Shown: positions 3,459 to 35,898, counted from the stretch's first letter. The stretch: DNA of 64,000 nucleotides from a virus (IMGVR_UViG_3300031949_000413:41088-105087); one strand, 5' to 3'. Notes: a model not told the origin generated them from the letters alone. A program made the numbers and translations.

Positions 3459-3658
3459 TGTACAACAGGCTATATCAGTGGTTAGTAAAGCGTTACATAA
3501 AGATCGAGGCGTGTGGTAAGTTGTTGGTTGTTAGCATCAAGGTCGAATGGTGGTCGCCATTATGGTGGCTTTTTGCACTTATGGATATTCCGAAAGACTT
3601 AACCATAAACAGTCCACAGCACGACTGACTTGCAATTATTCAGAGAAAGTAAGATAAA

Positions 3659-3889
3659 ATGAGCAAAACCATGCTGAATGAAATTGTGCGTCAAATGAAC
3701 AATCTGGAAGCACTCGACCAGAAGCCGGTTGCTGTCAAGATGAATCGGGCCACTTTCGACCGCATGGTGGCTGAGGCGAAGAAGGTTTATGCCCTGGAAG
3801 TCACTCAATTCGTCGTTGTGGGCCTAAAGGTGATGATCGATCCGGCTATTGCAGATGGTGTCGTGCGCGTACAGGAGGAATGGCAATGA
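3659..3889 (+). CDS. hypothetical protein
   Basis: 76-aa ORF. A copy of the conserved intergenic motif sits 35 nt upstream. Confidence 0.45.
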   Translation: MSKTMLNEIVRQMNNLEALDQKPVAVKMNRATFDRMVAEAKKVYALEVTQFVVVGLKVMIDPAIADGVVRVQEEWQ

Positions 3890-3922
3890 TTAAAACTGAA
3901 AAGCAGTAGGACTTAATGACTA

Positions 3923-4144
3923 TTGTCCCACATTCCTATTGGTGGTATCCTAGTGTTACAGGCGGGGCGACTGGGAGGGATGCCAAATCCAAACTCCGAG
4001 AGAGACAGTCGCCCTGCCCACTACATAATAGCCCTGATAGCAGAGGTCGGCGGAGATACTACTATTGTGCGTATGGCCTATTGGCCCAACGCTAAGAAGG
4101 CCGGTATCAAGTACCCATTTCCACCATTTAAGGAGAAACCATGA
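3923..4144 (+). CDS. hypothetical protein
   Basis: 73-aa ORF whose stop overlaps the next start (ATGA). Confidence 0.3.
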   Translation: MSHIPIGGILVLQAGRLGGMPNPNSERDSRPAHYIIALIAEVGGDTTIVRMAYWPNAKKAGIKYPFPPFKEKP

Positions 4145-9745: not shown

Positions 9746-10456
9746 ATGAAGAAGATAACCGACCCGCTCACGTGGGTCACTGAAGCAACCGAAAAGCCGT
9801 CGAAGGACAAGCGCAAGCGCAAAGCACAACGCCAGGCGCTATTGACTGCCCATGTCAAGGGCAATGTGACGTTTGGGCTTGACGGGCATCGTGTCCACCT
9901 GGTAAATGACGTATTGCCAATCGGGGATGAAATTAAGCCTGTTGACGTGGCTTTGCAAGTTGTGTCTCGCGCCAAGTCAGGTACTATCATGGGCCGCATT
10001 AGCAAGTATCACTTGCTCAAGGCTGCTGAAGTGTGTGGAGTGTTTGCCAAACATTCCATGAATATCATGAAAATGACGCTCAATGGCACGTGGAGTTGTA
10101 CCAGCGCGTCGGCAGAGTTCGGATCGACAAACGTTACCATTGAAAACGGGGATAGCTGGTATGTCAAGTGGGTATTTGCCAAGTCGCCAGCGGAGTACAG
10201 GCGCATTGTAAAAACACTTGGATGCACCGAAAACTACGACAACGCGCTAATTACCAGCAAGGTGGTCTACGACCACACCGGGGCTGACATCTGCATCGCG
10301 GTAGATTACAAGTACCTTATTGAGGCGCTTGAGGGCTTACCAGAGATCATTGAATATCGGATGACCGATCCCGACACCGCCTTTTATCTCGCCGGGGAAG
10401 TTGACGGCGTGCTACGGGAAGCGGTGATCATGCCGATCCATTTGGGGAATGACTGA
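9746..10456 (+). CDS. short DNA polymerase III beta sliding-clamp-like protein (about 2 domains)
   Basis: C-terminal third matches bacterial DnaN domain III by eye. DYKYLIEALEGL resembles NVSYVLDVLNAL. EYRMTDPDT resembles VRMMLTDS. The terminal AVIMPIHL resembles AYVVMPMRL. Confidence 0.5.
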   Translation: MKKITDPLTWVTEATEKPSKDKRKRKAQRQALLTAHVKGNVTFGLDGHRVHLVNDVLPIGDEIKPVDVALQVVSRAKSGTIMGRISKYHLLKAAEVCGVFAKHSMNIMKMTLNGTWSCTSASAEFGSTNVTIENGDSWYVKWVFAKSPAEYRRIVKTLGCTENYDNALITSKVVYDHTGADICIAVDYKYLIEALEGLPEIIEYRMTDPDTAFYLAGEVDGVLREAVIMPIHLGND

Positions 10457-10457
10457 C

Positions 10458-10604
10458 ATGAATCATCACTGGAAAGTATGGACTGAGGACGATGCCGGGA
10501 ACGAGACGGAAGTGTTGTGCGAAGGCAGTCATGCCAAGTGCCTGAGCTATTACAAGCAGCATGGCGGTGAACGCGCCGGGCTGCATTTGGGATATGAGGT
10601 GTGA
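10458..10604 (+). CDS. hypothetical small protein (48 aa)
   Basis: First of four tandem small genes. Its end sits in the junction GAGGTGTGACATGG. Confidence 0.35.
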   Translation: MNHHWKVWTEDDAGNETEVLCEGSHAKCLSYYKQHGGERAGLHLGYEV

Positions 10605-10605
10605 C

Positions 10606-10866
10606 ATGGTGAAAAAGAACATGCGCACGCACGAGAAGTTTGCCATCGAGTGGGTCAAACACAACTACGGTCGTAAGTGGAAGTCGCGCCTGACGATGGA
10701 TGCTGATCATTTGCCAGTTCACTACAGGCTGTTTCACTGGTATCCATTTGGCCGACAAGATTGGAACTTGTATATCCATTACGCCAGGGTGTACCTGGCG
10801 CGCACGACAGACTATTTGTACCAGACTGCTCCTAAAGGATGGTTGGTACAGGTATCGGAGGTGTGA
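10606..10866 (+). CDS. hypothetical protein
   Basis: Starts in the junction GAGGTGTGACATGG and ends in the same motif. Confidence 0.45.
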   Translation: MVKKNMRTHEKFAIEWVKHNYGRKWKSRLTMDADHLPVHYRLFHWYPFGRQDWNLYIHYARVYLARTTDYLYQTAPKGWLVQVSEV

Positions 10867-10867
10867 C

Positions 10868-11080
10868 ATGGGAAAACAATATACGCCAGCTAATGAACGG
10901 CTCACGCTCGGAGAGTTGCGAGACTTTCTAGCCAGACAGACCAATCTACCCGACAGCACTCCGGTAGTCATGTTTTTAGATCGTGATGACAATAAATGCT
11001 GTCAAGTATATGCTGTTCGGGCATGGACTGGCAACAAGGCTAATATCACACTATTGCCTGGTCATGATATTGAGGTGTGA
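10868..11080 (+). CDS. hypothetical protein
   Basis: Same conserved junction at both ends. Confidence 0.45.
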   Translation: MGKQYTPANERLTLGELRDFLARQTNLPDSTPVVMFLDRDDNKCCQVYAVRAWTGNKANITLLPGHDIEV

Positions 11081-11081
11081 C

Positions 11082-11282
11082 ATGGACAACTACTTACTGT
11101 ATGCACTACGTCAGTATGGAGTACGCTTGACCTGTGGCGACAAGTGGCTGGTTCTGAATTACGCATCGCCAGTTGACGCGCCAGAGTACATTGTATACTG
11201 GCGTCCCTATGCCGCAAAAAAGACTAAGGTGTGCTATCAGGGTGCTTCTGCGGAAGACGCTGTTAATATCCTGGTGCGATAG
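11082..11282 (+). CDS. hypothetical protein
   Basis: Starts in the third copy of GAGGTGTGACATGG. Confidence 0.45.
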   Translation: MDNYLLYALRQYGVRLTCGDKWLVLNYASPVDAPEYIVYWRPYAAKKTKVCYQGASAEDAVNILVR

Positions 11283-11297
11283 TCCTAAAGGAGAGCA

Positions 11298-11603
11298 ATG
11301 AACAACGAACAACTACACAAGTTTTGGGATACGCCTGGCGGAACGATCTACGAGATCGCCATCGGTAATTCATACGACGGTGGTGAACAGGGAAAGGAAG
11401 ATTGTCGAATTGCAGATAATCTTAGTCACTGGCTGAAGCGCCGAATTACCAGCAATAAACAGATGGTATTTGTCTCTGTCAGTACCGTTCTTACGCGCGA
11501 TATATCTATTGCGCTGATCCGTCAGGGCATTGCTGATATTGTCGAGAATGTGTATATTCTGAATCGGAACACAGGTAAATACATGCCACGATGGAGAAAA
11601 TAA
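11298..11603 (+). CDS. hypothetical protein
   Basis: AAAGGAGAGCAATGAAC start context, shared with the gene at 12310. Confidence 0.5.
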   Translation: MNNEQLHKFWDTPGGTIYEIAIGNSYDGGEQGKEDCRIADNLSHWLKRRITSNKQMVFVSVSTVLTRDISIALIRQGIADIVENVYILNRNTGKYMPRWRK

Positions 11604-11776
11604 TATGCCCCATCTGTGATATGCACGTTGATCTGATGGTTGGAATCGTGGCAAGTATTGTAACTGGCTTGCCTGTAATAGAGGTTGCATTAGTTTGCAC
11701 AAACCCAGAGTGCGAGTATGAGGCATTCACATACCTCCATCAAAGCGGGATGTCCGAGCTGGAAGTCGGGCAATAG
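11591..11776 (+). CDS. hypothetical Cys-rich small protein
   Basis: Contains CPICD ... CTNPEC. Confidence 0.35.
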   Translation: MEKIICPICDMHVDLMVGIVASIVTGLPVIEVALVCTNPECEYEAFTYLHQSGMSELEVGQ

Positions 11777-11842
11777 CCCTAAAGTCCCATTGTTTTGTGT
11801 GCCAGCTCGTGCTATGCTGGTAGCCAATAAAGGGGTGTACGG

Positions 11843-12064
11843 ATGACGACACTTGACGAGTTGGCAAAGGACATTGGAAACAAGACTATGAAGGCCATCA
11901 TTGTCCTATCGGACTTCGGCTATACCACCAGGGACTATCGTGAGGTGATGGTACGATGGGGTGTGGTGGGCTATGAGCTGAACGGCCATTGGGTAAGAGT
12001 TATGGACGGCGATGTGCTGAAAACATTCGCCGGGGAAAGGATCGAGGTGACGAATGGACGGTAA
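11843..12064 (+). CDS. hypothetical protein
   Basis: Preceded by CCAATAAAGGGG and by the CTAAAGTCCCATTGT promoter box. Confidence 0.45.
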   Translation: MTTLDELAKDIGNKTMKAIIVLSDFGYTTRDYREVMVRWGVVGYELNGHWVRVMDGDVLKTFAGERIEVTNGR

Positions 12065-12309
12065 CATTCAAGGGCTAATCGAGCGCATGGCTGGTGTTCG
12101 TGAAATTCTTGAAATCGGTCTGCCAATGCCCTTCGTCATGACCTATGGCACTTTTGAGGTCAGACGAGCAACGCGGTAGCACACAGTCTAGCCAGCCCGA
12201 ACCCGTTAGGGCGGATTCGGTAGCGATACCGACATAGAGTGTAGAACGCTCGAAGGTGACGGTCGTCGTAGACCCACCGCTGGCTAGGCTGTACCAATAA
12301 AGGAGAGCA

Positions 12310-13461: not shown

Positions 13462-13770
13462 ATGTGCAAATGGTCTGGATACACAATTGGGAAGTCATAC
13501 ACATTGGTAAACAACAGCGGTGTAATGTGTGACCAGTGTGGCGGTGCAGCATTTCGTCCAGGAGATATGTTCATATTGACGTATAATGGTCATGAGCAAT
13601 TGCGTCGATACGGGCTGTGCGACAAATTCACATATACGCACTGTCACAGATGTGTAACTTGTGGCCGCGAATTATACATTTGGTATGATCCGTGTGGTGG
13701 TATCTCTAGCAGCCTGTTTGACAGTGAGAGCGTTAGTCAAGATACCGAGCTTGTAATAAGAGGACACTAA
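13462..13770 (+). CDS. Cys-rich zinc-binding protein
   Basis: CDQCGG ... CHRCVTCG. Confidence 0.4.
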   Translation: MCKWSGYTIGKSYTLVNNSGVMCDQCGGAAFRPGDMFILTYNGHEQLRRYGLCDKFTYTHCHRCVTCGRELYIWYDPCGGISSSLFDSESVSQDTELVIRGH

Positions 13771-14723
13771 TGGCGCTGCAAACCAGACCGGAGACGCTTG
13801 ATGCCTATATCGGTCATCCCGATATGAAGGCGAACATCAAGACACTGTTAGACGCTGCTAAGACGCGCCAGTTACCGGCCACTCATGCGCTGATGTATGG
13901 GCCAGCCGGTACGGGCAAAACTACCATTGCGCGCATCGTTGCTAACGAGATGGGCGCTAACCTGAAAACGGGTATCGGGCCTGCCTATAGAACTGTGCCA
14001 GACATCATTCCATTGCTGATGTCCATTAGGCAGGGTGACGTGCTGTTTATTGACGAGATTCACGCCCTGCCGCGATTGGTTGAAGAAGTCCTGTACACAG
14101 CAATGGAAGACGGCGTGATTGACGTGGTGTTCGGTGACATTATGCCGTACACCATGCGAGTGCCCATTCCTGCCTTTACGATGCTAGGCGCAACGACCCG
14201 ACTAGGGAAGATGTCACAACCGCTTCGGGATAGGTTTAAGGCCGTTTTGCGCCTTAACTACTACACCGATACGGAATTGGCCGAAATAATCACCCAGACG
14301 GGCGTTGTAGCCACGCCAGACGGCATTGCAGAGATTGCACGGCGCGGACGTGGCACTCCGCGAGTGGTTCTTAACCTATTGTCTAGGGTGAGTGACTATG
14401 CACTGGCAAATGGCTTGCTAATAGATGCCGAAACAGCATCAAAGGCGCTAGACGCTATCGGGGTTGACAAAGTTGGCTTGGATAGCAACGACCGGCGCTT
14501 CCTAAAAGTATTGGCTAATCGTTTTGGTGGTGGGCCAGCCGGTATTGACGCTATCTCGTCGGTGATGAACGAAGAACGAGATACCGTAGAGGACGTGATC
14601 GAACCATTCTTGTTGTGGAAGGGAATGATCGAACGAACGCCACGCGGACGGGTGTTGACTGTAACTGGCTATCAGCATTTGGGCATGGCCGTGCCAGAAC
14701 GCAAAGAAACGGTGGTAATGTAA
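13770..14723 (+). CDS. ruvB: Holliday junction branch-migration helicase RuvB
   Basis: Near-colinear match to bacterial RuvB by eye. Walker A GPAGTGKTT, Walker B and sensor LFIDEIHAL, then MLGATTR, RDRF, GTPRV and the C-terminal RTPRGR block. Confidence 0.85.
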   Translation: MALQTRPETLDAYIGHPDMKANIKTLLDAAKTRQLPATHALMYGPAGTGKTTIARIVANEMGANLKTGIGPAYRTVPDIIPLLMSIRQGDVLFIDEIHALPRLVEEVLYTAMEDGVIDVVFGDIMPYTMRVPIPAFTMLGATTRLGKMSQPLRDRFKAVLRLNYYTDTELAEIITQTGVVATPDGIAEIARRGRGTPRVVLNLLSRVSDYALANGLLIDAETASKALDAIGVDKVGLDSNDRRFLKVLANRFGGGPAGIDAISSVMNEERDTVEDVIEPFLLWKGMIERTPRGRVLTVTGYQHLGMAVPERKETVVM

Positions 14724-15531: not shown

Positions 15532-15732
15532 ATGAACTACCAGAACATTTCGGGCTACACATTTGTCGGATGGTCAACGCTGGCAACGGCTGACGAGGCC
15601 ATTGCAAACTTCGCCAATAAACTATTACAGCGCGGGCTTGTGGTAGACAAGTCTGATCTGCTGGCGATGACGCCAGAACACATTCCATATCAGGTGGTCA
15701 GATGGGAAGTACACCGAAAGATAGCGCCATGA
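15532..15732 (+). CDS. hypothetical protein
   Basis: 66-aa ORF. Confidence 0.35.
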   Translation: MNYQNISGYTFVGWSTLATADEAIANFANKLLQRGLVVDKSDLLAMTPEHIPYQVVRWEVHRKIAP

Positions 15733-17268: not shown

Positions 17269-18141
17269 ATGTACCGACAACGACGCTGGAATAAACCCGA
17301 ACCCAGAGCAGTCATTCGTGCTGAGAATGGCGTGCTAGTGCTGGACGCCTCCTATGACGAGGCATTGATAGCATGGCTGAAGGCAATTCCCACATCTGAC
17401 CGTTCTGGTGACAAGATCGACGGCAAGTTCCTGTGGTATATCGACCCCAAGCATGGGACTGCCCTACAGGGCGCGATCCAGCGGTATATGGGCCTGACAG
17501 TGGCATTACCTGCCGTTTCGACTGTAGAAGCACCCCAGAGCGTCCAGGCGTTCCAGGTGCGCTATCTGGGTGGTGCGTATGCTAGGGGTGCTGAAGAACG
17601 CACGGCATCGGGCTGGGTGGGTAGCCAGCAAGACGGCAAGTGGCTACTGATCTTCGGTGAAACGGCCCTGCGCAAGTGGTTCGGAGAACACGACGCTAGA
17701 CCGGGGGATATGCTCAATCATTATGGTGTGTTGGGTGTGGCGTCTACGGTGGATATGGACGCTATTAGGAAAGCCTATAGGAAAATGGCTGTTATCTGGC
17801 ATCCCGACCGCAACCACGATCCAGATGCCCAAAAGCAGTTTATCGCTATCCAGAAGGCATACGAGGTGTTGTATGATGACATCAAACGCCAGAAGTACGA
17901 TTCCGGGTTGCAGCTACAGGCCAGTATTGGTGGTGAGCGCAAGAGTACCGATAATGTGTACTTCTCGCCACTTCGGTGTGGCGTTATCACTGCTACCGTC
18001 AAACCTATTACAGGAAACCGATATATGGTTATCGGTATCAGTAAGTGGGATGACATCGTTGAGGCAGGTCGGATGTTAGTACCGACGTGGGAAAAAGGCG
18101 CTAAGATGTTCCTAGAGCAGTGGGTGGAGGTTGTACGATGA
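17269..18141 (+). CDS. J-domain (DnaJ-like) protein with a novel N-terminal domain
   Basis: YGVLGV ... AIRKAYRKMAVIWHPDRN ... AIQKAYEVL. HPD tripeptide sits in a J-domain context. Confidence 0.7.
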   Translation: MYRQRRWNKPEPRAVIRAENGVLVLDASYDEALIAWLKAIPTSDRSGDKIDGKFLWYIDPKHGTALQGAIQRYMGLTVALPAVSTVEAPQSVQAFQVRYLGGAYARGAEERTASGWVGSQQDGKWLLIFGETALRKWFGEHDARPGDMLNHYGVLGVASTVDMDAIRKAYRKMAVIWHPDRNHDPDAQKQFIAIQKAYEVLYDDIKRQKYDSGLQLQASIGGERKSTDNVYFSPLRCGVITATVKPITGNRYMVIGISKWDDIVEAGRMLVPTWEKGAKMFLEQWVEVVR

Positions 18142-18344
18142 ATATTCACAAGGGCACGGAACTTCCGGTGTCCAACGGCATGAAACTTGTACTAATAAGA
18201 CTTGGGGCTATCGGGAGATACTGGAAGATTGTTGAGTTCTCTGGCGGATGGATTCTTGAAGGACATCCCTATGAGAATCTTGATGATGATGAAATTGAGG
18301 TGCTGGGATGGACAGAGCTTCCGAGCATTGAGGTTGTACAATGA
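18138..18344 (+). CDS. hypothetical small protein
   Basis: Coupled between the J-domain and vWA genes. Confidence 0.35.
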   Translation: MNIHKGTELPVSNGMKLVLIRLGAIGRYWKIVEFSGGWILEGHPYENLDDDEIEVLGWTELPSIEVVQ

Positions 18345-18925
18345 GCGATAACATTTCCCTACAAGTGGTAACTGGTAGCCTACAAGACATCGTACAGTCC
18401 AAGCACACCAGTCTAGCCGATGCCTTCGTGGACGTGGACGCCGTGATCCTGATAGATGAGTCAGGCAGCATGGCCGCTACCGATAGTCGGGGCGGTAAGT
18501 CGCGTTTTAGTGTTGCCTGTGAGGAACTAGCTAACTTGCAGAAGTCCCAACCGGGTAAGTTCGCTGTGATCGGGTTCAGCACGGAAGTCGTTCCACATAT
18601 TGGTGGTGTTCCGATCTATCAGTCTGGTGGCACAGATATGGCTAGAGCATTGAACTACGCCAAGATGTTCGATGTGCCAACCATGCAGATATTCATGGTA
18701 TCAGACGGTGAACCAAATAGCGAGGAACAGACAATTGAAGTGGCTAAAACATACAAGCACGCCAATATTTTGACTATCTTCGTTGGGCCTGAAACCGACA
18801 GAGGCGGACGAGATTTCTTGGCAAAATTGGCGGCTGTCCGTGGTGGAAAAACCACTACGGCTGACCGTGTGATGGAGTTGTCTGAGAAGGTACAAACCCT
18901 GATGTTGGAAGGAGTACGAGCATGA
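18341..18925 (+). CDS. von Willebrand factor A (vWA) domain protein
   Basis: MIDAS motif ILIDESGSM. Downstream GGTDMARAL and MVSDGEPN. Confidence 0.7.
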   Translation: MSDNISLQVVTGSLQDIVQSKHTSLADAFVDVDAVILIDESGSMAATDSRGGKSRFSVACEELANLQKSQPGKFAVIGFSTEVVPHIGGVPIYQSGGTDMARALNYAKMFDVPTMQIFMVSDGEPNSEEQTIEVAKTYKHANILTIFVGPETDRGGRDFLAKLAAVRGGKTTTADRVMELSEKVQTLMLEGVRA

Positions 18926-19881
18926 AAAGCACTACCGAAAGAGAAGACAGAGACTTTGCCAACAAGGTGATTGATGATGGAGTAGCCGATGACATCATCC
19001 AAGATATTAGGGCTATATTGGCCCGCGACAGCTCTTGGGTGCTGGAATGGGTTGTTACTAATTTCGACCCGGAGGATGTTTACGACGATGATGCGCTGGG
19101 TGCGTGGGCCGGAAAATACGGGTACAGAAAATTACCACAAGAGCGTATCATTGATAACAAGATCGAATTGGGCGGCCTCGAGTTCATTAACATCCCGGCT
19201 GGTAAGTTCCTCATGGGCAGCAAGGATGACAACAACCTGGCTTATGATGCTGAGAAACCGCAGCACACGGTCGAAATTCCGTATGATTACTGGATCGCGC
19301 GCTACGAAGTGACGAACGACCAATTTGCGAAGTTCGTCGAGGCGGCAAAGTACAAATTCGATCAAGGCAAATGGCAAGACAAATCCGATCATCCGGTTGT
19401 GAATGTGACGTGGCATGATGCGATGGCCTATTCCAAGTGGCTGAATGAAACGTTGCGCGCTGAATTGGGCGATCAGGTTGTGCGCCTGCCGACCGAGGCC
19501 GAATGGGAAAAGGCCGCGCGTGGCGAATATGGCAACGAGTGGCCGTGGGGCAATGAGTTCGATCCGAAGAAGTGCAACTCAAGTGAGGGTGGCAAGCAGG
19601 GCACGACGCCTGTCAATGCGTATTCACCACAGGGCGATAGTCCCTATGGCGTGAGCGACATGGTGGGCAATGTGTGGGAGTGGACTTATTCGCTGCGGAA
19701 GTCATATCCATACAAAGTGGATGATGGCCGTGAGAGCGAGACGGATTCAGGGGTGCGGGTGGTGCGCGGCGGTTCCTGGTTCAATGGGGCCTCGGTCGCT
19801 CGGTGTACGTGCCGTAACAGGGACACGCCCGTTCTTCGTAACTTCGGTCTGGGGTTTCGCTGCGTCCTCCGGCTTTTATAG
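18922..19881 (+). CDS. FGE-sulfatase (SUMF1/formylglycine-generating-enzyme-like) domain protein
   Basis: LPTEAEWEKAARG, GNVWEWT, RGGSW and GFRCV are the hallmark FGE-sulfatase motifs. The roughly 60-aa N-terminal extension is unknown. Stop-start coupled to the vWA gene. Confidence 0.7.
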   Translation: MKSTTEREDRDFANKVIDDGVADDIIQDIRAILARDSSWVLEWVVTNFDPEDVYDDDALGAWAGKYGYRKLPQERIIDNKIELGGLEFINIPAGKFLMGSKDDNNLAYDAEKPQHTVEIPYDYWIARYEVTNDQFAKFVEAAKYKFDQGKWQDKSDHPVVNVTWHDAMAYSKWLNETLRAELGDQVVRLPTEAEWEKAARGEYGNEWPWGNEFDPKKCNSSEGGKQGTTPVNAYSPQGDSPYGVSDMVGNVWEWTYSLRKSYPYKVDDGRESETDSGVRVVRGGSWFNGASVARCTCRNRDTPVLRNFGLGFRCVLRLL

Positions 19882-19957
19882 CCTGATCTGCTGGTTTCTG
19901 ATCTGCTGTGTTAATAATGAGGCTTATCCATACCATAACACTAGAAGGAGTGCGTAC

Positions 19958-25700: not shown

Positions 25701-26915
25701 ATGAATCTGCTAGAAGAAGAGCTCTTTAAGGCTATTGCCTATGACCCCCAACAGGCACGCTACATCGTGTCGCCACAGTCAGGACGCCTTAAAGAATGGG
25801 TGACAACCACTCTAGCAGTCACGGTCTTCAAGCGCATTGCAGAATTAACCATCAGCAACAAGCCAATCAGCTTTGTATCGGTAGCATCTTGTGCTGGTGT
25901 CGGCTCAACCAATAGAGACTACTTACTCGACTTATGGCTATCTGCTAAGCAGTCACCTCGCGTCGATGTTGAGCAAACCATTGAAGCCATCAAACATGAC
26001 TACATCATTCGAGAGTCCCATCAGGCAATGGACACCTGCAAGGCAAATAACACCAAACAGCCTTCAGGGGTAATCAGCCATATCAGTGATTTAGGCACAA
26101 CACTTGGGATATTGGCACACGAGGGACTGGTGTACAATCCCGATCCAGCCAGTCACAAGGACGACAAGGGCGCTGATGTATATGGCGCGTGGGGGTCGGT
26201 AACATTCAACAAGATGTATGATGGGGGCATTCCCACTAGGGGATATTCCCTTATTATTGGCCCAACCGGTCATGGCAAGTCCACATTAAGCAGGTCGAAA
26301 GCGGCACTATTAGTAGCAAACCAAGTGCCGACAACAATGTGCCTAAATGAAGACTTAATAGATGCTGGTGAAACATCTAGGCGTATTCATAGAGCACTGA
26401 CCGAGATGTGGGCAGGAACTAAGTCTGAAGATGAGATATGGCGCGAGATGTCTACCTATCTTAAGGTGTACGACTTGGATGCTGGAACGCATGACATCCA
26501 CCAGATTGATCGTTTCGCCTATTGGGATCAGCCATCAGTGTTGATACTGGACTCCCTAGACAACCTAAACTTCCCGAAAGGGACAGAACGGTATCAGGAC
26601 TCAGAGCGCCATCGTGTTAGGGCTAACTTTCTAGCGTCTATGACCAAGGAACGTAACTGCTTTACGGTTCTGGTCGGCAATGGCTCTAAGGCGGAGCAAG
26701 AGGAAATAAGGAAAGACATCTCAAAGGTTACTATGCCAATGGCGTTTGGAAGCATTTGGTACAACAACCTATCTTCATGGTCTTTTGTATTTTGTCGTGA
26801 CAAGACCAATCCAGTTGTGTCAGACATAAAGCGATGTAAGAATCGTGGTGCGACAGGATCGATTGGTGAGATGTGGTATCTTGACTATGACATACGTGGT
26901 GGATACTACAGCTAG
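25701..26915 (+). CDS. DnaB/RepA-like P-loop ATPase (candidate replicative helicase)
   Basis: Walker A LIIGPTGHGKST and Walker B VLILDSLDNL on a RecA-like fold. Novel N-terminal domain. Confidence 0.45.
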   Translation: MNLLEEELFKAIAYDPQQARYIVSPQSGRLKEWVTTTLAVTVFKRIAELTISNKPISFVSVASCAGVGSTNRDYLLDLWLSAKQSPRVDVEQTIEAIKHDYIIRESHQAMDTCKANNTKQPSGVISHISDLGTTLGILAHEGLVYNPDPASHKDDKGADVYGAWGSVTFNKMYDGGIPTRGYSLIIGPTGHGKSTLSRSKAALLVANQVPTTMCLNEDLIDAGETSRRIHRALTEMWAGTKSEDEIWREMSTYLKVYDLDAGTHDIHQIDRFAYWDQPSVLILDSLDNLNFPKGTERYQDSERHRVRANFLASMTKERNCFTVLVGNGSKAEQEEIRKDISKVTMPMAFGSIWYNNLSSWSFVFCRDKTNPVVSDIKRCKNRGATGSIGEMWYLDYDIRGGYYS

Positions 26916-26982: not shown

Positions 26983-28476
26983 ATGGACATTCAGGAGGTT
27001 GATATGGCTGACACGGAAGAAATCATTGATGGCGAAGTAGGATCACTGGCACTTGTGCCTACTATTGAAGCCCCTCTGGTTACACAAGGCGAAGATGTAT
27101 TCCACGGCCTATCGGTAGCCCCCATTACGGCTCAGCAGACAGCCGTTGTTCTATGCGAGGCCAACCCGGACGAGCTGGACATCCTACCCACTGGAGAGGT
27201 ATATCCCCCACAAGTCAATGTGCGCCTACGGCTCATTGAGGCATTCGGCCCAGCGGGTTGGGGAATGCGCCCATTATCAAAGCCCCACATCACAGAAAAT
27301 GTCGTAGTTCAAGAATGGGCATTGTACATCAACGGCAACTTTGTATCATACACTATTGGTGGAGCCGAGTACCAGTCTGGAAACAAGCGCCTGAACTGGT
27401 CGGATGCTCTGGAGTCTCTGAAGTCTAACGCTCTGGTAAGATTGTGCAAAGACTTGGGCATGTTCCATGAGTGCTGGGACAAGCATTGGGTTGACGAGTG
27501 GAAACGCAAGTATACCGTGAATGTATGGTGCAAGGTTAAGACGTGGGAGAAGGGAGTGGAAGTATTCAAGAACAAGACCCAGTGGCGCAGGGCTGACGCC
27601 CGTCCGCTGTGGAATGAGACTGGTATTGCCAAAGACTCTCCCAACAAGGACAAATACGTTGCACCCTCCGGTGGAGTAGTAGACCCAGAGACGGGTGAGA
27701 TTATTGATAGCAAGGCTGGTAGCAGGCAGTCTACCAAAGCACCAGTCACACCGTCGAAGGCAGATATTAAAGATAATGGTCAACCGCCCAAAGAGCCAGC
27801 ACCAGTCACGCCTGCTCACAAACCAATCATACCAGCGACTAAGGCTGAACCTGTACCAGAGCCAACGACTGCACAAGAGCCAGCCAAGACGAATGCTATC
27901 ACGGTAAGCATCTGGAACGGTACGACCATGAGTGAGAAACCAGCATTGGAGGCCATTGACGAGAAGGCCAAGAACTGGTTTGTGGGTAAGTTCATTGGTA
28001 AAGACAAGTTATGGGAATATGCGCCTGCCTTCTGGGGATCGGATAAATCAGACGATAAAGGCAAGGTCAACCCTGGTCATTTAGGCAAGCACTTTGGACG
28101 CCACAACCTAATCGATCCGAAGAGCCCGTTCACCTACGACCAATTTGCAAGTCTGGTGGGTTACTGCTGGCACAAACTGGGCGACCCGCACGGCTGGCTC
28201 GATCCTAGATACTATCAGGACAAGATAGACGAAGAAGCGAAGAAGGTTGCTAAAGACACCGACAGCGCGCGCACTGACCCAAATGCGATTGTCACCCGCG
28301 CCTCGCTGATGCTTATCCCCATTGTCAAGATCGCCAAAGATGCCTATGCTGTGGAATGGCAAGAACTGGACACAGCACGGTTAGAGTCATTGTCTACTCT
28401 GCTGGATATGGTAGAGTCGGGTAAGGTAGGACGTGAGGATTTTGATAAGATGATCGATATGCTGAAGGCGGGCTAA
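26983..28476 (+). CDS. Rad52/Mgm101-like single-strand annealing protein with Pro-rich linker and unknown C-terminal domain
   Basis: NWSDALESLKSNALVRLCKDLGMFHECWD resembles the Rad52 DALKRALRxFGNxLG helix. Low-complexity PPKEPAPVTPAHKPIIPATKAEP tract. Confidence 0.35.
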   Translation: MDIQEVDMADTEEIIDGEVGSLALVPTIEAPLVTQGEDVFHGLSVAPITAQQTAVVLCEANPDELDILPTGEVYPPQVNVRLRLIEAFGPAGWGMRPLSKPHITENVVVQEWALYINGNFVSYTIGGAEYQSGNKRLNWSDALESLKSNALVRLCKDLGMFHECWDKHWVDEWKRKYTVNVWCKVKTWEKGVEVFKNKTQWRRADARPLWNETGIAKDSPNKDKYVAPSGGVVDPETGEIIDSKAGSRQSTKAPVTPSKADIKDNGQPPKEPAPVTPAHKPIIPATKAEPVPEPTTAQEPAKTNAITVSIWNGTTMSEKPALEAIDEKAKNWFVGKFIGKDKLWEYAPAFWGSDKSDDKGKVNPGHLGKHFGRHNLIDPKSPFTYDQFASLVGYCWHKLGDPHGWLDPRYYQDKIDEEAKKVAKDTDSARTDPNAIVTRASLMLIPIVKIAKDAYAVEWQELDTARLESLSTLLDMVESGKVGREDFDKMIDMLKAG

Positions 28477-29816: not shown

Positions 29817-29828
29817 TTGGAGACTTTA

Positions 29829-30797
29829 ATGCAGGTTCAACTAGCCTTATCACTCGATGATGTTAGCCTGGTTCCTCGTTATTCAGAACTAGATAGCCGC
29901 GATGAAGTCCAACTCGGAACTGATTTGGACTTCGTTCATTTGGACATCCCGATCATTAGTAGTCCAATGGACACTGTGACGGGTATCGAGATGCAGGATG
30001 CCATTAGGCGTTGTGGCGGTATCGGTATCCATCATCGCTACACCGACACCAACACACTCATTCAGGCATATAGTCATGGCGGTATCGCAGTGTCACCATC
30101 AATGGGAACGAAATGGCTAGAGGCCATTAGCGAACCTGTTAGGGGCTATGGCGTTCTGGTTATTGATGTGGCACACGGCCATAGCAAGCGCGTCCTACAA
30201 TACGCAAAAGAACTGTGGGATATGGGTTTCTACGTCATATCGGGTAATATATGCACGGTAAGTGCTGCTGAAGCTTACTTAGATATTGGTGTAAACCTAT
30301 TAAGGGTTGGTATAGGATCGGGTAGCAGTTGTAGCACGAGACTGGTTGCTGGTGTGGGTGTTCCGCAGTTTACCGCCGTACAAGATATTAGTCGCATCTT
30401 CGGGAGTGAGGCTAAAGTCATCAGCGATGGGGGTATCAAGCACTCTGGCGACATCACTAAAGCATTGGCGGCTGGTGCAAATGCTGTAATGGTCGGGCGA
30501 CTTGTAGCAGGGGCAGATGAAGCACCTGGTAGGCATGTTAGCGACAACTACAAGGAGTTTCGTGGCATGGCAAGCCTGCCTTCGCTTGATGCTGCTGGCA
30601 AGGAACGTAACATTGAAGGTGTGGCCTCACACGTAAAACTTGAAGGGCCACTATCGGGTATCATGGAGCGTGTTGCTCGTGAGCTAAGGATTGGGTTCGC
30701 CTACCTCGGCGCACACAATATCCAAGAGCTACAAGAGCGTGCAGAATTTGTGCAAGTGACTACTTTAGGGCTAGACGAAGGAAGGCCGAGGATATAA
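29829..30797 (+). CDS. IMP dehydrogenase / GMP reductase family TIM-barrel enzyme (no CBS domains)
   Basis: LSLDDVSLVP, PIISSPMDTV, catalytic-Cys loop GIGSGSSCSTR, and ISDGGI ... AGANAVMVG. ATG at 29829 after GGAGACTTTA. Confidence 0.75.
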   Translation: MQVQLALSLDDVSLVPRYSELDSRDEVQLGTDLDFVHLDIPIISSPMDTVTGIEMQDAIRRCGGIGIHHRYTDTNTLIQAYSHGGIAVSPSMGTKWLEAISEPVRGYGVLVIDVAHGHSKRVLQYAKELWDMGFYVISGNICTVSAAEAYLDIGVNLLRVGIGSGSSCSTRLVAGVGVPQFTAVQDISRIFGSEAKVISDGGIKHSGDITKALAAGANAVMVGRLVAGADEAPGRHVSDNYKEFRGMASLPSLDAAGKERNIEGVASHVKLEGPLSGIMERVARELRIGFAYLGAHNIQELQERAEFVQVTTLGLDEGRPRI

Positions 30798-31556: not shown

Positions 31557-32465
31557 ATGTTGAATAAGATTGTCGTGCTGTTCGCCATCGCGGTAGCCCT
31601 GACGGGTTGTTTCTTCAATGAGCCAGTAGGACAAGACCAGCAGGCCGTCAAGCTGGACGGCGGTAAGTTTGTAGAGTGTGTCGGTTCTGGCATTCACACG
31701 GACTTAGGGCCATTTGCCGACCTGGTTCAGATTTCATCAAGAACCATTAACTTTTTAGTATCAGACCCGCAGGTAGCAACCAAAGATAGCCAGCTCGTTG
31801 GTGTTGAATTGGCCGTTCAAGTCAGGCGCAAGACCGACTGTGAATCCATGCAGTCTATTTTGAGAAATTGGCCGTCCGTGATTGACAACGACGATAGCAT
31901 GAGGCTATTGGTCGAGCCGGCCACCCTAGAGGCCATTAAGGTTGGCACTCGTGAGTTCTCATTAGATGAGCTATTAAACGACAGGAACAAGCTGGCTGAT
32001 GGTATTCGCGGGTCGCTCATTGACGACGCGGGCAAGTTCAGTTCCGAGATTGTCAACGTCCAAGTCAAGAACGTTCAGATTGACGACAACTATGCTCAGC
32101 TTCTCCAACAAAAGGCTAACCTGACCGCCGAACGAGAAGTTAAGGTTCGCCAGCAAGAGATTATTCGGCAAGACGCCTCCAACCAACAGCTAGAGCAAAC
32201 GCAGCAGGCTGAGACATATCGGAAACAGCTTGAGGCGGAGAAGGCTAAGACTGACATAGAGGTAGAGATTGCCAAAAGAGAAGGTAGTGTCATCGCCGCC
32301 CAGAATCAAGTCTATTCTCTGAATCCGCAGGCATTTGAGATCAAGCGGCTCGAATTACTGGCGAAGGTACTGGGCGACAAGGCTACCATGTATTTCATTC
32401 CACAAGGCACTTCCCTGTCAGTGCTATTAGGTCAGATTGGGGCTGGTGCGGTAATTTCACCATGA
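31557..32465 (+). CDS. SPFH/band-7 (HflC/stomatin-like) lipoprotein
   Basis: Signal peptide plus LTGC lipobox. SPFH-like core with a long coiled-coil C-terminus (QQKANLTAEREVKVRQQ ...). Confidence 0.55.
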   Translation: MLNKIVVLFAIAVALTGCFFNEPVGQDQQAVKLDGGKFVECVGSGIHTDLGPFADLVQISSRTINFLVSDPQVATKDSQLVGVELAVQVRRKTDCESMQSILRNWPSVIDNDDSMRLLVEPATLEAIKVGTREFSLDELLNDRNKLADGIRGSLIDDAGKFSSEIVNVQVKNVQIDDNYAQLLQQKANLTAEREVKVRQQEIIRQDASNQQLEQTQQAETYRKQLEAEKAKTDIEVEIAKREGSVIAAQNQVYSLNPQAFEIKRLELLAKVLGDKATMYFIPQGTSLSVLLGQIGAGAVISP

Positions 32466-33003: not shown

Positions 33004-33171
33004 ATGAAAACATTTGTGGTGTCATTTAATGAGGCTGGTGGTGAATACGTAGGGCATCTGACAGTGAGATGTAAAACCTTGAGGCTGTCAGAGAAGGACA
33101 ACAAGACATTCTCGGCTGATGGGGTTATCATTACCATAGACGAGAAGATCATCAATGTAGTAGAACTTTAG
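33004..33171 (+). CDS. hypothetical small protein
   Basis: ATG after GGAGCATA within ORF 32938..33171. Confidence 0.3.
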   Translation: MKTFVVSFNEAGGEYVGHLTVRCKTLRLSEKDNKTFSADGVIITIDEKIINVVEL

Positions 33172-33246
33172 GGGGCATAGCTCAGTCCGGTTCAGAGCAG
33201 ATGCTTGTCAAGCATAAGGTCGTGGATTCAAATTCCACTGTCCCCG
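33171..33246 (+). tRNA. tRNA-Asp (GTC)
   Basis: Acceptor GGGGGCA/TGTCCCC. D-arm GCTCAGT ... GAGC. Anticodon loop TTGTCAA. T-arm GTGGA-TTCAAAT-TCCAC. Confidence 0.6.
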
Positions 33247-33250
33247 CCTT

Positions 33251-33323
33251 GCTCACAAAGTTCAGATGGTGGAACATATCTTTGGTAAAGATAAGGTCGG
33301 GGATTCGAGCGCCCCTGTGAGCT
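33251..33323 (+). tRNA. tRNA-Thr (GGT)
   Basis: Acceptor GCTCACA/TGTGAGC. Anticodon stem TATCT/AGATA with loop TTGGTAA. Confidence 0.5.
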
Positions 33324-33327
33324 CATG

Positions 33328-33410
33328 GCTGGTGTACGCAACTGATATGACGAAGCTCACTTAAAATGAGTGCCCGACAGGGCGTGTGGGTTTGAATCCC
33401 ACCACCAGCA
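33328..33410 (+). tRNA. tRNA-Leu (TAA), long variable arm
   Basis: Acceptor GCTGGTG/CACCAGC. Loop CTTAAAA. Variable stem GCCC/GGGC. T-arm GTGGG-TTTGAAT-CCCAC. Confidence 0.5.
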
Positions 33411-33441
33411 CAGACTGTTGGCTCTTTAATAATTGAATGTC

Positions 33442-33514
33442 GCCGTGATCGTACAAACGGAAAGTACACTGCCCCTGTAAGGCAGGGATGTGGGATCATA
33501 CTCCACTCATGGCT
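33442..33514 (+). tRNA. tRNA-Thr (TGT), non-canonical (C33, T-loop ATCATAC)
   Basis: Acceptor GCCGTGA/TCATGGC. D-stem GTAC/GTAC. Anticodon stem CTGCC/GGCAG with loop CCTGTAA. Confidence 0.35.
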
Positions 33515-33518
33515 CTAG

Positions 33519-33591
33519 GCGGGTATAGTTCAATTGGTAGAGCGCGACTCCTCCAAAGTCGAGACGACGGGATCGTACCCCGCTACCCGCT
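33519..33591 (+). tRNA. tRNA-Gly (TCC), C33
   Basis: Acceptor GCGGGTA/TACCCGC. D-arm TAGTTCAATTGGTAGAGC. Anticodon stem CGACT/AGTCG with loop CCTCCAA. Confidence 0.5.
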
Positions 33592-33592
33592 C

Positions 33593-33663
33593 TCCCCGAT
33601 AGCACAGCGGAAGTGTACTGCACTCGTAACGCAGAGACGCCAGATCAAGACTGGTTCGGGGAT
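33593..33663 (+). tRNA. tRNA-Thr (CGT)
   Basis: Acceptor TCCCCGA/TCGGGGA. Loop CTCGTAA. T-arm GCCAG-ATCAAGA-CTGGT. Confidence 0.4.
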
Positions 33664-33677
33664 CATGGAGGGTACAA

Positions 33678-33862
33678 TGGTAAAGGCATTGAAGTCAAAG
33701 ACAGCTGAAGACAGAGCCAAGCATTTTCTGGCAGAGTTATTGGACGAGACATTGGATTGGTCATGTACAGACACCCAGCATGAATTGGCATACGCCCTGA
33801 AGGAAATTCTGGAAGATTACTGTCCCGATTGGATAGACCCCTATCGGGTCAGCGAAGAATGA
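33678..33862 (+). CDS. hypothetical small protein embedded in the tRNA island
   Basis: ATG at 33678 after GGAGGG (MVKALKSKTAEDRAKHF ...). The longer ORF-track frame 33488.. overlaps tRNAs and is rejected. Confidence 0.4.
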
Positions 33863-33864
33863 AT

Positions 33865-33953
33865 GCTCAGTAGGCGACTATCGGTTGGTCGCATGGCGCT
33901 GTAGACGCCATCCACTAAAAAGGCGTGGTCGGGTTCGACTCCCACACTGAGCA
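33865..33953 (+). tRNA. tRNA-Tyr (GTA), long variable arm
   Basis: Acceptor GCTCAGT/ACTGAGC. Anticodon stem TGGCG/CGCCA with loop CTGTAGA. Variable stem CCAC/GTGG. T-loop TTCGACT. Confidence 0.5.
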
Positions 33954-33957
33954 CTAT

Positions 33958-34030
33958 GGGTCGTTAGCTCATTTAGGAGAGCACTGCACCTGCAATGCAG
34001 AGGCGACTGGAGCAAAGCCAGTACGATCCA
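33958..34030 (+). tRNA. tRNA-Ala (TGC), C33, atypical T-loop
   Basis: Acceptor GGGTCGT/ACGATCC. D-arm TAGCTCATTTAGGAGAGC. Anticodon stem CTGCA/TGCAG with loop CCTGCAA. Confidence 0.45.
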
Positions 34031-34033
34031 CAT

Positions 34034-34109
34034 GCCGACGTGACGGGAACCAAGTATACCTACCTGCCTCAAAAGCAGGTGCTTACCGGCGCAAATCCGG
34101 TCGTCGGCA
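34034..34109 (+). tRNA. tRNA-like, anticodon CAA (Leu?), short variable arm, poor D-arm
   Basis: Acceptor GCCGACG/CGTCGGC. Anticodon stem CCTGC/GCAGG with loop CTCAAAA. T-arm ACCGG-CGCAAAT-CCGGT. Confidence 0.3.
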
Positions 34110-34115
34110 CTTGAT

Positions 34116-34188
34116 ACGGGTGAAGCCGAAGAAGATAGGCGACGATCTCCAAAATCGTTAGTAGCAGGCGCACGTCCTGCCACCCGTG
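34116..34188 (+). tRNA. tRNA-Trp (CCA)
   Basis: Acceptor ACGGGTG/CACCCGT. Anticodon stem ACGAT/ATCGT with loop CTCCAAA. Confidence 0.5.
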
Positions 34189-34337
34189 CCTAATGGCTCT
34201 AGTGCCACATGACCCATCTATCGGGTGTCAAGTGATTTCATCTTACAATATGAAATAGTAAACAAGTTGTGTCTGTGTGCCCAGAGTGGAGAGAAGCGAG
34301 CACTGAAACTCCTACAGAGACGGCTAGAACCATGAAT

Positions 34338-34409
34338 GCCAGTGTAGCTCAATGGATGAGCGACAAGTTTCTACCTTGTAGGATGAGAGTTCGACCCTCT
34401 CCACTGGTA
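34338..34409 (+). tRNA. tRNA-Arg (TCT)
   Basis: Acceptor GCCAGTG/CACTGGT. D-arm TAGCTCAATGGATGAGC. Anticodon stem ACAAG/CTTGT with loop TTTCTAC. T-arm GAGAG-TTCGACC-CTCTC. Confidence 0.7.
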
Positions 34410-34410
34410 C

Positions 34411-34485
34411 TGCGCGGTGAGCTGGAGTAGTCCCAGCAGCGGCCTCATAAGCCGAATGACGTGGTTGCAAATACCACCCGCGCTA
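34411..34485 (+). tRNA. tRNA-Met (CAT) (approximate ends)
   Basis: D-stem GCTG/CAGC. Loop CTCATAA. T-arm GTGGT-TGCAAAT-ACCAC. Acceptor GCGCGG/CCGCGC. Confidence 0.4.
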
Positions 34486-34621
34486 CCTATGCAAGACACA
34501 GCTTAAGATGTGTCGAGCAGAACGGCTGTGTAAATGGTCGTATCGCCATTACGTCTCAAACGGATAGAGCGCGGCTCTGCGGAGGCCGAGGCAGTCGGCT
34601 CAACACCGGCATCGGGTACTT

Positions 34622-34708
34622 GGAGTAGTAGCGATAGTTGGCATTCGCGCCTGACCTGCTAAGTCAGCGCCCCGCAAGGGGTTGGCAGATCGTCACTGCC
34701 CTACTCCG
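34622..34708 (+). tRNA. tRNA-Ser (GCT), long variable arm
   Basis: Acceptor GGAGTAG/CTACTCC. Anticodon stem CTGAC/GTCAG with loop CTGCTAA. Variable hairpin CCCC-GCAA-GGGG. Confidence 0.55.
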
Positions 34709-34888
34709 CCTTCCGCACGAGGGAATATCCTTCCTCTGGCATACGGGAGTCTCATCGTTAAGGAACTCTAGTTCCGTTGGTAGGCCGTAAGACCTTTGAG
34801 ACCGTGCGGAGCCGAGAGTCCAATCGCTAAGACGTGGATATGCGCGGGCCACACTCGGTAGCGGGACGGGACACACCCGCTAAAATAT

Positions 34889-34961
34889 GGTGTCTGAACC
34901 CAAACGGTGCGGGGAATGCCTGTGGAGCATTTATTAGCCAGTTCGACTCTGGTCTGACACC
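34889..34961 (+). tRNA. tRNA-His (GTG) with extra 5' G(-1)
   Basis: G(-1) plus GTGTCTG paired with CTGACAC-C. Anticodon stem AATGC/GCATT with loop CTGTGGA. T-arm GCCAG-TTCGACT-CTGGT. Confidence 0.55.
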
Positions 34962-35028
34962 CTCGGTAGAGTGGGGGCTAAAGGTGAGGCTACCACAAGA
35001 ACGCCAAAATCTGCCCACTCTGCCCCAC

Positions 35029-35100
35029 AGGGCATTGGTCAACCAGCGAAGACGCAAGGTTTTCAACCTTGAAGGGTCGGGCCAGCACCGACATGCCCTA
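35029..35100 (+). tRNA. tRNA-Glu (TTC)
   Basis: Acceptor AGGGCAT/ATGCCCT. Anticodon stem CAAGG/CCTTG with loop TTTTCAA. T-arm GTCGG-GCCAGCA-CCGAC. Confidence 0.45.
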
Positions 35101-35105
35101 TTGAT

Positions 35106-35190
35106 GGCAGGTTGGCAGAGAGGCTTATCGCGGCGCTCCTGAAAAGCGTTAGGGATTACACCCACACTCGTTCAAATCGAGTACCTGCCT
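35106..35190 (+). tRNA. tRNA-Ser (TGA), long variable arm, C33
   Basis: Acceptor GGCAGGT/ACCTGCC. Loop CCTGAAA. T-arm ACTCG-TTCAAAT-CGAGT. Confidence 0.5.
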
Positions 35191-35193
35191 CTT

Positions 35194-35264
35194 GCTACCG
35201 AAGTGAAACGGTTCATGACGGACTTTTAATCCGTTCGGACAGAGTTCGACTCTCTGCGGTAGCA
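35194..35264 (+). tRNA. tRNA-Lys (TTT)
   Basis: Acceptor GCTACCG/CGGTAGC. Anticodon stem ACGGA/TCCGT with loop CTTTTAA. T-arm CAGAG-TTCGACT-CTCTG. Confidence 0.65.
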
Positions 35265-35267
35265 CTT

Positions 35268-35339
35268 GGGTTGCGAGCTTGGATGGTTAAGCATCCGCCT
35301 CTTAAGCGGAAGAGAGGGATTCGAGTTCCCTGCGACCCA
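35268..35339 (+). tRNA. tRNA-Lys (CTT)
   Basis: Acceptor GGGTTGC/GCGACCC. D-stem GCTT/AAGC. Anticodon stem TCCGC/GCGGA with loop CTCTTAA. T-arm AGGGA-TTCGAGT-TCCCT. Confidence 0.65.
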
Positions 35340-35429
35340 CATGGCAAACCGATGTCATTACCGCACTGGGAATAACCCAGTGAGTCGGATCGGGATGGAG
35401 GAGGGCGCATTCCTAAATAACGTCCACCA

Positions 35430-35503
35430 CGGGGACAGGTGTATAAGGATTGCACACGCGCCCTGGGAGCGCGAGGCAGCCGATTCGATTTCGGCGTCCC
35501 CGA
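35430..35503 (+). tRNA. tRNA-Pro (TGG), C1:G72, C33
   Basis: Acceptor CGGGGAC/GTCCCCG. Anticodon stem CGCGC/GCGCG with loop CCTGGGA. T-arm GCCGA-TTCGATT-TCGGC. Confidence 0.55.
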
Positions 35504-35506
35504 CCT

Positions 35507-35577
35507 TGCCCTGTCGTATAAAGGTAGTACACAACACTCTGGATGTTGGGGAAGTGGATCAGTACCACTCAGGGCAG
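35507..35577 (+). tRNA. tRNA-Gln (CTG), U1:A72
   Basis: Acceptor TGCCCTG/CAGGGCA. Anticodon stem CAACA/TGTTG with loop CTCTGGA. T-arm AGTGG-ATCAGTA-CCACT. Confidence 0.45.
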
Positions 35578-35581
35578 CTTT

Positions 35582-35653
35582 GCAGACGCCATATCCCGGT
35601 GGATATGCCACTCCGATAAGGTGGTCAAGATGGCTCAACTCCATCCGTCTGCA
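35582..35653 (+). tRNA. tRNA-Ile (GAT), C33
   Basis: Acceptor GCAGACG/CGTCTGC. Anticodon stem CCACT/GGTGG with loop CCGATAA. T-arm GATGG-CTCAACT-CCATC. Confidence 0.5.
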
Positions 35654-35657
35654 CTAT

Positions 35658-35729
35658 GCGGGAGTAGCTTAATGGTAGAGCGCATCATCGCCAATGATGT
35701 AGGTGTCAGTTCAAATCTGATTTCCCGCC
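35658..35729 (+). tRNA. tRNA-Gly (GCC)
   Basis: Acceptor GCGGGAG/TTCCCGC. D-arm TAGCTTAATGGTAGAGC. Anticodon stem CATCA/TGATG with loop TCGCCAA. T-loop TTCAAAT. Confidence 0.6.
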
Positions 35730-35823
35730 CTGTGTCATTCGGGCAGTTAGAGGCTGCACCCATTATAGCGGATACGTAGCCGTTGATGGGCATAGACTGG
35801 GGCGACAACGAATGACCCTAAAT

Positions 35824-35898
35824 ACCCTCGTCGCCTAATTGAATATGGCACTTGGTTTCGACCCAAGCACAATGAGAGTTTGAATCTCTCCGAGGGTT
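35824..35898 (+). tRNA. tRNA-Arg (TCG)
   Basis: Acceptor ACCCTCG/CGAGGGT. Anticodon stem CTTGG/CCAAG with loop TTTCGAC. T-arm GAGAG-TTTGAAT-CTCTC. Confidence 0.5.

Follow-up and report, generated by a model that had tools for sequence, protein, structure and literature searches.

Class C (type III) J-domain proteins direct Hsp70 to one client, well-known examples being the J-domain of the SV40 large T antigen and HscB. Moreover, host DnaJ and DnaK remodel replication initiators (lambda O-P-DnaB, P1 RepA and F RepE), releasing lambda P from DnaB and activating P1 RepA. Virus-encoded J-domain proteins are also known but, to our knowledge, few have an identified client. Rki of phage RB43 is a phage J-domain protein which is reported to stabilise the heat-shock sigma factor (PMC3486835, cited in PMC12619734). 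As regards vWA proteins, a recurrent partnership of vWA and FGS (FGE-sulfatase) domains has been described for multicellular bacteria, in their MoxR-vWA conflict systems (Kaur et al. 2020, PMC7159879).

The locus considered here lies in the window, that is, the whole stretch of 64,000 nucleotides of viral DNA that was analysed, and consists of four genes carried on a metagenomic contig of ~126 kb. The window clearly belongs to a phage, with 23 tRNA genes, a GH25 lysin, a tyrosine integrase and large tail-type ORFs, and also encodes an Mgm101/Rad52-like annealing protein and an AAA_25-like ATPase. The four genes, all on the + strand, encode a J-domain protein (17269-18141, 290 aa), a small protein (18138-18344, 68 aa counted from the ATG, the ORF lister starting it at a GTG at 18120), a vWA protein (18341-18925, 194 aa) and an FGE-sulfatase-fold protein (18922-19881, 319 aa). 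The initial annotation had recognised the J-domain, vWA and FGE-sulfatase proteins, and Pfam confirms the three calls; the motifs DESGS, PTEAEWE, GNVWEWT, RGGSW and GFRCV are each present as claimed. No match to the block was found among GenBank phages by megablast, that is, no close DNA relative.

The same annotation described the four genes as joined by overlapping stop and start codons, which is correct, and deduced that they act together, which is supported for two of them only. All three junctions in 17269-19881 are 4-nt ATGA overlaps with a GAGG/AGGAG-like motif ahead of each, and neither promoter-like sites nor + strand terminator-like sites were found within the block. This uninterrupted run of overlaps would suit one integrated machine in which the FGE-fold and 68-aa proteins are obligate partners of the J-protein and the vWA protein. 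However, 4-nt overlaps are frequent throughout the genome: of the 52 junctions between the genes called on this contig, 9 are of this kind, a further series of three occurring a short way upstream of the block. Coupling by itself is thus weak evidence for a dedicated cassette, overlapping genes being a general habit of this genome and not the sign of a special gene set.

The J-protein shows the expected J-domain fold, with the HPD motif between helices II and III. Pfam DnaJ matches residues 150-211 (E 2.7e-22) within a J-domain extending over 150-217, with HPD at 178-180. The features of DnaJ proper (class A/B), namely a G/F-rich linker, a zinc finger and the DnaJ C-terminal domains, were not found, PF00226 being the only one of the DnaJ families detected, and the NCBIfam DnaJ models cover the J-domain only (71.7 bits vs a cut-off of 377). 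The J-domain is flanked by a family-specific N-terminal alpha/beta domain (~14-137) and, at the C-terminus, by a small beta domain (~231-287) with a conserved PLRCG motif. The N-terminal region had already been noted as unassigned in the initial annotation, which overlooked the C-terminal domain of ~75 aa. The AlphaFold2 model built from the family alignment is confident (pLDDT 89.4) and divides the chain into an alpha/beta subdomain (14-76), a three-strand-plus-helix subdomain (91-137), the J-domain and a C-domain of four beta strands. Across 56 members of the family H178, P179 and D180 are invariant, as are W56, Y99, W125, F138 and W260 in the flanking domains and residues of the PLRCG motif.

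Neither flanking domain has a family in Pfam (E<=1), PHROGs or NCBIfam, and structure matches in BFVD are confined to the J-domain. A HMMER search of 1.84 billion representative proteins found the N-domain to be essentially restricted to the N-terminus of proteins of 265-300 aa with the same architecture; three giant repeat proteins (P0336, P0349 and P0370) were discarded as apparently spurious homologues, P0336 consisting of near-identical tandem repeats and all three giving marginal or no Pfam matches. The family comprises at least 457 full-length members, mildly basic as a rule (median pI 8.7), and a full-length homologue occurs in only one GenBank phage record. The protein is thus best classified, from its sequence features, as a putative J-domain co-chaperone of class C that has N- and C-terminal domains of its own. 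It would differ from the class C proteins mentioned above (Rki, the J-domain of SV40 T antigen, HscB) in that its J-domain is internal, flanked on both sides by domains for which these databases have no family or structural match.

The vWA protein is matched by Pfam VWA_2 (E 1.8e-7) and also by VWA, and contains a complete MIDAS formed by D39-x-S41-x-S43 (DESGS, residues 39-43), T98 and D122, all five residues being invariant in 54 homologues. At least 317 homologues of 185-195 aa make up the family, which is acidic (median pI 5.1). Scanning IMG/VR with the single vWA sequence gave no matches, and an alignment had to be used as query.

The scan of IMG/VR with the vWA alignment yielded 80 loci, mostly in genomes of 30-45 kb, in which the J gene was sought by HMM in six-frame ORFs. 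In 63 of them a gene of the J family was found upstream, with the same orientation; since 13 of the 17 remaining loci end within 1.2 kb upstream of the vWA gene, the number of evaluable loci is 67, and the J gene is present in 63/67. The distance between the end of the J gene and the start of the vWA gene in these loci has a median of ~0.5 kb (range 0-5.4 kb). The reciprocal scan with the J alignment also gave 80 loci, with the vWA gene in 74, i.e. 74/75 evaluable: five of the six lacking it end within 1 kb downstream of the J gene, and three of these five are the opposite ends of contigs that do carry the vWA gene. Furthermore, in bacterial contigs (one genome per species) the J gene adjoins the vWA gene in 27 of 31 vWA loci, lying downstream of it in two.

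These bacterial records belong overwhelmingly to the phylum Chloroflexota, class Anaerolineae (Anaerolineaceae, Bellilinea, Caldilinea), and include the cultured Ornatilinea apprima P3M-1; the size of the contigs on which several of the loci are situated (0.2-2.1 Mb) indicates prophages. The pair is carried by hundreds of uncultured viruses, mainly of Chloroflexota/Anaerolineae, and has no cultured-phage representative. The only GenBank phage record found by protein search with the vWA sequence was MW202444.1, an uncultured phage of 41 kb in whose annotation a "dnaJ" gene precedes the vWA gene by two genes and a RepA-like helicase follows it. Its DnaJ aligns with the window J-protein over all three regions (29% identity, E 7e-36), and neither the 68-aa ORF nor the FGE protein is related to the neighbours of its vWA gene. 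Among closer relatives (L003 and L006, identities of 47-60%), L003 encodes a J-protein 55% and a vWA protein 60% identical to those of the window, separated by an unrelated 124-aa ORF, while in the 264 kb contig L006 the J gene is followed by three small ORFs and then by the vWA gene; neither has an FGE gene. A conserved gene of ~80 aa after the vWA gene was also considered and rejected, the ORFs found there not being homologous across lineages.

The conserved functional unit is therefore a two-gene module, made up of the J-protein and the vWA protein, co-inherited and co-oriented (J then vWA), often with both genes directly abutting. Searches of the literature retrieved neither a phage module of J-domain and vWA proteins nor a viral J-protein with a vWA neighbour; the pair thus appears to be undescribed, and the initial statement that the phage-borne set is not a described module holds, no account of one having been found. 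What seems to be new is a virus-encoded class C J-protein of new architecture with a predicted obligate vWA partner. For known phage J-proteins such as Rki, no such neighbour was reported in these searches. The J-protein could be regarded as a general chaperone or stress modulator of the phage, aiding folding by DnaK or stabilising the heat-shock sigma factor like Rki, with the vWA protein as an unrelated neighbour or as a client. Phage J-domain proteins with roles of this type are known (Rki, PMC3486835, cited in PMC12619734), and matches limited to the J-domain are common among phages and giant viruses. The strict reciprocal linkage to the vWA gene points instead to a dedicated partner, N- and C-domains peculiar to the family imply that the client is a specific one, and the module is far from the structural genes, all of which make a general chaperone function improbable.

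The other two genes of the block behave quite differently. The 68-aa ORF has no family in Pfam (E<=1), PHROGs, NCBIfam or PADLOC, and a 15-nt direct repeat (18127-18141 and 18330-18344) flanks it on both sides. Its homologues are confined to one related lineage (L006/L007), where two small ORFs in tandem follow the J gene (E 1e-6 and 7e-5), and its slot is taken by unrelated ORFs in L003, L001 and L009; it is a lineage-specific small gene and a later addition. The FGE-fold gene is scarcer still near the pair: no FGE-domain homologue was detected within 6 kb of the J and vWA genes in ~190 related loci, the closest relatives included, the matches obtained there with the FGE query being small ORFs that resemble its N-terminal segment only. 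Its closest homologue (54% identity) is found in another viral contig, L012, beside an SSB gene and with no J or vWA gene nearby. This gene, too, is a lineage-specific later addition beside the pair.

The joint conservation in related phages on which the initial annotation had made its four-gene cassette depend is consequently lacking for the FGE gene and, outside L006 and L007, for the small ORF, and the reading of the four genes as one unit is not supported. The single machine of four obligate partners can still call on the family of the FGE N-terminus, which recurs within this phage group at 1.5-3.5 kb ahead of the J gene; with the FGE gene missing from ~190 loci that carry the pair, and with 68-aa homologues in two loci only, it is very improbable. 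In the window phage the 68-aa ORF and a gene for a catalytically dead FGE-fold protein have rather been slotted into the two-gene module.

As regards the FGE-fold protein itself, Pfam FGE-sulfatase (PF03781) covers residues 87-315 (E 7.6e-59), which places it in this fold, and its best relatives of solved structure are ToxD (7spq, E 6e-29) and human FGE (E 1e-28), structures of bacterial FGE being matched as well. The active-site Cys pair, whose loss had been proposed initially as the mark of a binding-only domain, is absent: the catalytic copper-binding residues C336/C341 of human FGE are replaced by N and A in the phmmer alignment, and a 3-residue deletion follows. The protein also scores under every NCBIfam equivalog cut-off, which together with the replacement of the Cys pair indicates that it is not a formylglycine-generating enzyme; it is most likely a binding-only accessory domain. 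The features of EgtB/OvoA-type sulfoxide synthases were likewise not found, the EgtB model reaching 109.8 vs 360 bits, a DinB domain being absent and the N-terminus having no Pfam match (E<=1). This N-terminus spans ~85 aa, and not ~60 as given initially, and its residues ~20-72 constitute a small phage-family domain homologous to stand-alone ORFs of ~60 aa (L167:1331-1612, L074:3321-3506 and L178:2595-2798). The FGE-fold protein is thus a fusion of this small domain with a probably ligand-binding FGE/C-type-lectin-like domain.

The genomic setting of the pair was established by clustering the ORFs of 82 loci and scanning the representatives against Pfam. The usual order comprises a 241-aa protein of unknown function, an ERCC4-like nuclease, a 257-aa unknown or AAA_24 protein and a PDDEXK_1 nuclease, followed by the J-protein, the vWA protein, a helicase, a Prim-Pol and the small and large terminase subunits. 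The helicase begins ~0.6 kb after the start of the vWA gene and is VapE-like in 41 loci, a 637-aa VapE/ORC-like ATPase in 14 and of the AAA_25 type in 9, while a Prim-Pol with a DnaG-type zinc ribbon is present in 76 of the 82. Two Anaerolineae contigs have the order ERCC4, AAA_24, PDDEXK_1, DnaJ, optionally a small ORF, vWA and one or more small ORFs, continuing with a VapE-like or 632-aa protein, Prim-Pol, terminase and portal. In typical genomes of 30-45 kb the pair is therefore located between the recombination nucleases and the replicative helicase and Prim-Pol, and the maintenance of the gene order across the clustered loci identifies it as a constant element of the replication/recombination module. 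The window phage is larger and has this module dispersed: the gene for a RuvB-type AAA+ protein ends 2.5 kb upstream of the J gene, and the AAA_25-like ATPase gene and the Mgm101-like gene start 6.8 kb and 8 kb, respectively, downstream of the vWA stop.

On this basis, a mechanism can be proposed in which the vWA protein holds a complex, probably that of phage replication initiation or helicase loading, to which the J-protein brings host DnaK; we consider this proposal to have somewhat less than an even chance of being right. The HPD J-domain would activate host DnaK as an ATPase, the client would be selected by the vWA partner together with the J-protein's own domains, and the vWA protein would clamp an acidic residue of the target through the MIDAS metal. 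The most likely client would be a phage replication-initiation or helicase-loading complex, by analogy with lambda P-DnaB, P1 RepA and SV40 T antigen; this suggestion is drawn from the helicase and primase neighbours, from a weak OB-like fold signal and from the dependence of the lambda, P1 and F initiators on DnaJ/DnaK. As in those replicons, an Hsp70 co-chaperone function is associated with replication, a predicted one being encoded here next to the helicase and primase genes, although the lambda, P1 and F initiators make use of host DnaJ, with no phage J-protein or vWA partner, and the likeness is one of gene position only.

The MoxR-vWA pairs offer the second term of comparison. In both cases, a MIDAS vWA protein is paired with part of an ATP-driven chaperone system and, in the window phage, an FGS/FGE-sulfatase domain lies beside the vWA gene as in the MoxR-vWA ternary systems (PMC7159879). 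Unlike the latter, the phage pair lacks a MoxR AAA+ protein and a VMAP/iSTAND component, and its vWA protein carries no fused effector domains; the chaperone link is a J-domain, implying Hsp70, instead of a MoxR ATPase, and the setting is a phage replication module and not a conflict system. Neither a MoxR-type ATPase nor a third component (VMAP/iSTAND/FtsH) was found within +/-10 kb or in the 82 clustered neighbourhoods, and the nearby AAA+ gene of the window scores above the RuvB equivalog cut-off of NCBIfam. A TerY-P triad was not recognised either, no kinase or phosphatase family being present among the conserved neighbours of the pair. It is possible, though rather doubtful, that the pair constitutes an Hsp70-driven counterpart of the MoxR-vWA pairs, that is, an unrecognised two-component phage remodelling system in which the vWA protein would act as adaptor and the J-protein as link to DnaK, employed throughout a lineage of Chloroflexota phages for starting replication or for disarming a host complex, with the dead FGE-fold module as a possible add-on.

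The link to conflict systems drawn in the initial annotation thus stands as regards the documented association of vWA and FGE-type domains, and fails as regards the remaining components and the defence systems, PADLOC giving no match. A role in anti-defence or host takeover, in which the J-protein would divert DnaK/DnaJ-dependent processes and the stand-alone vWA protein, joined in this phage by the FGS-type domain, would decoy or inhibit MoxR-vWA ternary systems, is in keeping with that association, with a binding or decoy function of a catalytically dead FGE domain, and with the hosts being mostly filamentous Anaerolineae, MoxR-vWA ternary systems being common in filamentous multicellular bacteria. 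Moreover, bNACHT25 is reported to need host DnaJ for phage sensing (cited in PMC12619734). Anti-defence genes, however, are usually variable and accessory, while this pair is near-universally fixed in the replication/recombination module, and the FGE gene is peculiar to the window phage among the ~190 related loci. An anti-defence role is therefore considered unlikely, and the fixed place of the pair favours a core role in the life cycle over an accessory one.

Since this J-protein family keeps to one partner and one genomic setting, the target of a viral J-protein becomes experimentally approachable, and the copy in cultured O. apprima P3M-1 makes experiments possible. If a MIDAS adaptor were indeed coupled to host Hsp70, this would be a new way for phages to exploit the host chaperone network, and the principle of the vWA protein as co-chaperone would be extended from AAA+ ATPases to Hsp70. 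From a practical point of view, the J and vWA genes can serve together as markers for a large uncultured group of phages and prophages of Anaerolineae, hosts that are abundant in wastewater and anaerobic digesters.

Finally, the FGE-fold protein shares its fold with SUMF1, ToxD, CalU17, EgtB, PvdO, PorK/GldK and the variable proteins of DGRs, and is distinguished from all of them by its N-terminal phage-family mini-domain. The gene was also considered as a possible DGR target, and this was rejected: blastn of 19401-19900 against the whole window returned chance matches of <=37 nt and no template repeat. With regard to a recent transfer, the 3' half of the gene has a GC content of 0.55-0.58, and comparable values are reached inside the J gene.

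The 68-aa ORF that lies between the genes of the J-domain protein and the vWA protein is flanked exactly by two copies of a 15-nt direct repeat, GAGGTTGTAC[G/A]ATGA (window 18127-18141 and 18330-18344), and the J-protein and the small ORF end in EVVR and EVVQ, respectively. The repeat looks like a duplicated junction, left when the small gene was inserted.

Small ORFs of another kind are found repeatedly upstream of the J gene within the phage group carrying the J and vWA genes. These stand-alone ORFs, identified in the related loci L167 (1331-1612), L074 (3321-3506, the same as L133:4375-4560) and L178 (2595-2798), are homologous to the N-terminus of the FGE-fold protein, the corresponding part of the window protein being residues ~20-72. 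They share a conserved segment of ~35-50 aa, with a motif such as EWV..NF.PEDVFD...L..WA...GY.

In two loci from Anaerolineae MAGs (L119 and L121) the vWA gene precedes the J gene, a reversal of the usual order; the two genes share a strand and are 0.2-1.7 kb apart. A further related locus, L066, contains a second, partial vWA-family ORF (3653-4033; HMM positions 84-186, 136 bits), with the full copy lying 2 kb upstream of it. Directly 3' of the FGE stop codon in the window there are two tandem copies of the 11-nt motif CTGATCTGCTG (19883-19893 and 19898-19908), and a third copy is located 4 kb upstream (15653-15663); allowing up to one mismatch, the four matches observed against 1.5 expected represent a marginal excess.

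As regards the genome layout, the early and replication genes are separated from the lysis and tail genes, which have the opposite orientation, by 23 densely clustered + strand tRNA genes (window 33171-36736). The early region includes an AAA_25-like ATPase (25701-26915), an Mgm101/Rad52-type annealing protein with an extension of ~300 aa (26983-28476), a GMP-reductase/IMPDH-family enzyme (29817-30797) and an SPFH/Band 7 protein (31557-32465). The window also encodes a protein (13770-14723) that, at 358 bits, scores above the NCBIfam equivalog cut-off of 282 for RuvB, the Holliday-junction motor. The late genes include one for a tyrosine integrase (43521-44486; Phage_integrase, E 2e-22), which suggests a temperate lifestyle for this tRNA-rich phage of ~126 kb. 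Finally, in L009, an Anaerolineaceae prophage, the large terminase gene (9884-12268) carries an intein, the Pfam domains following the order Terminase_6N, Intein_splicing and Terminase_6C.
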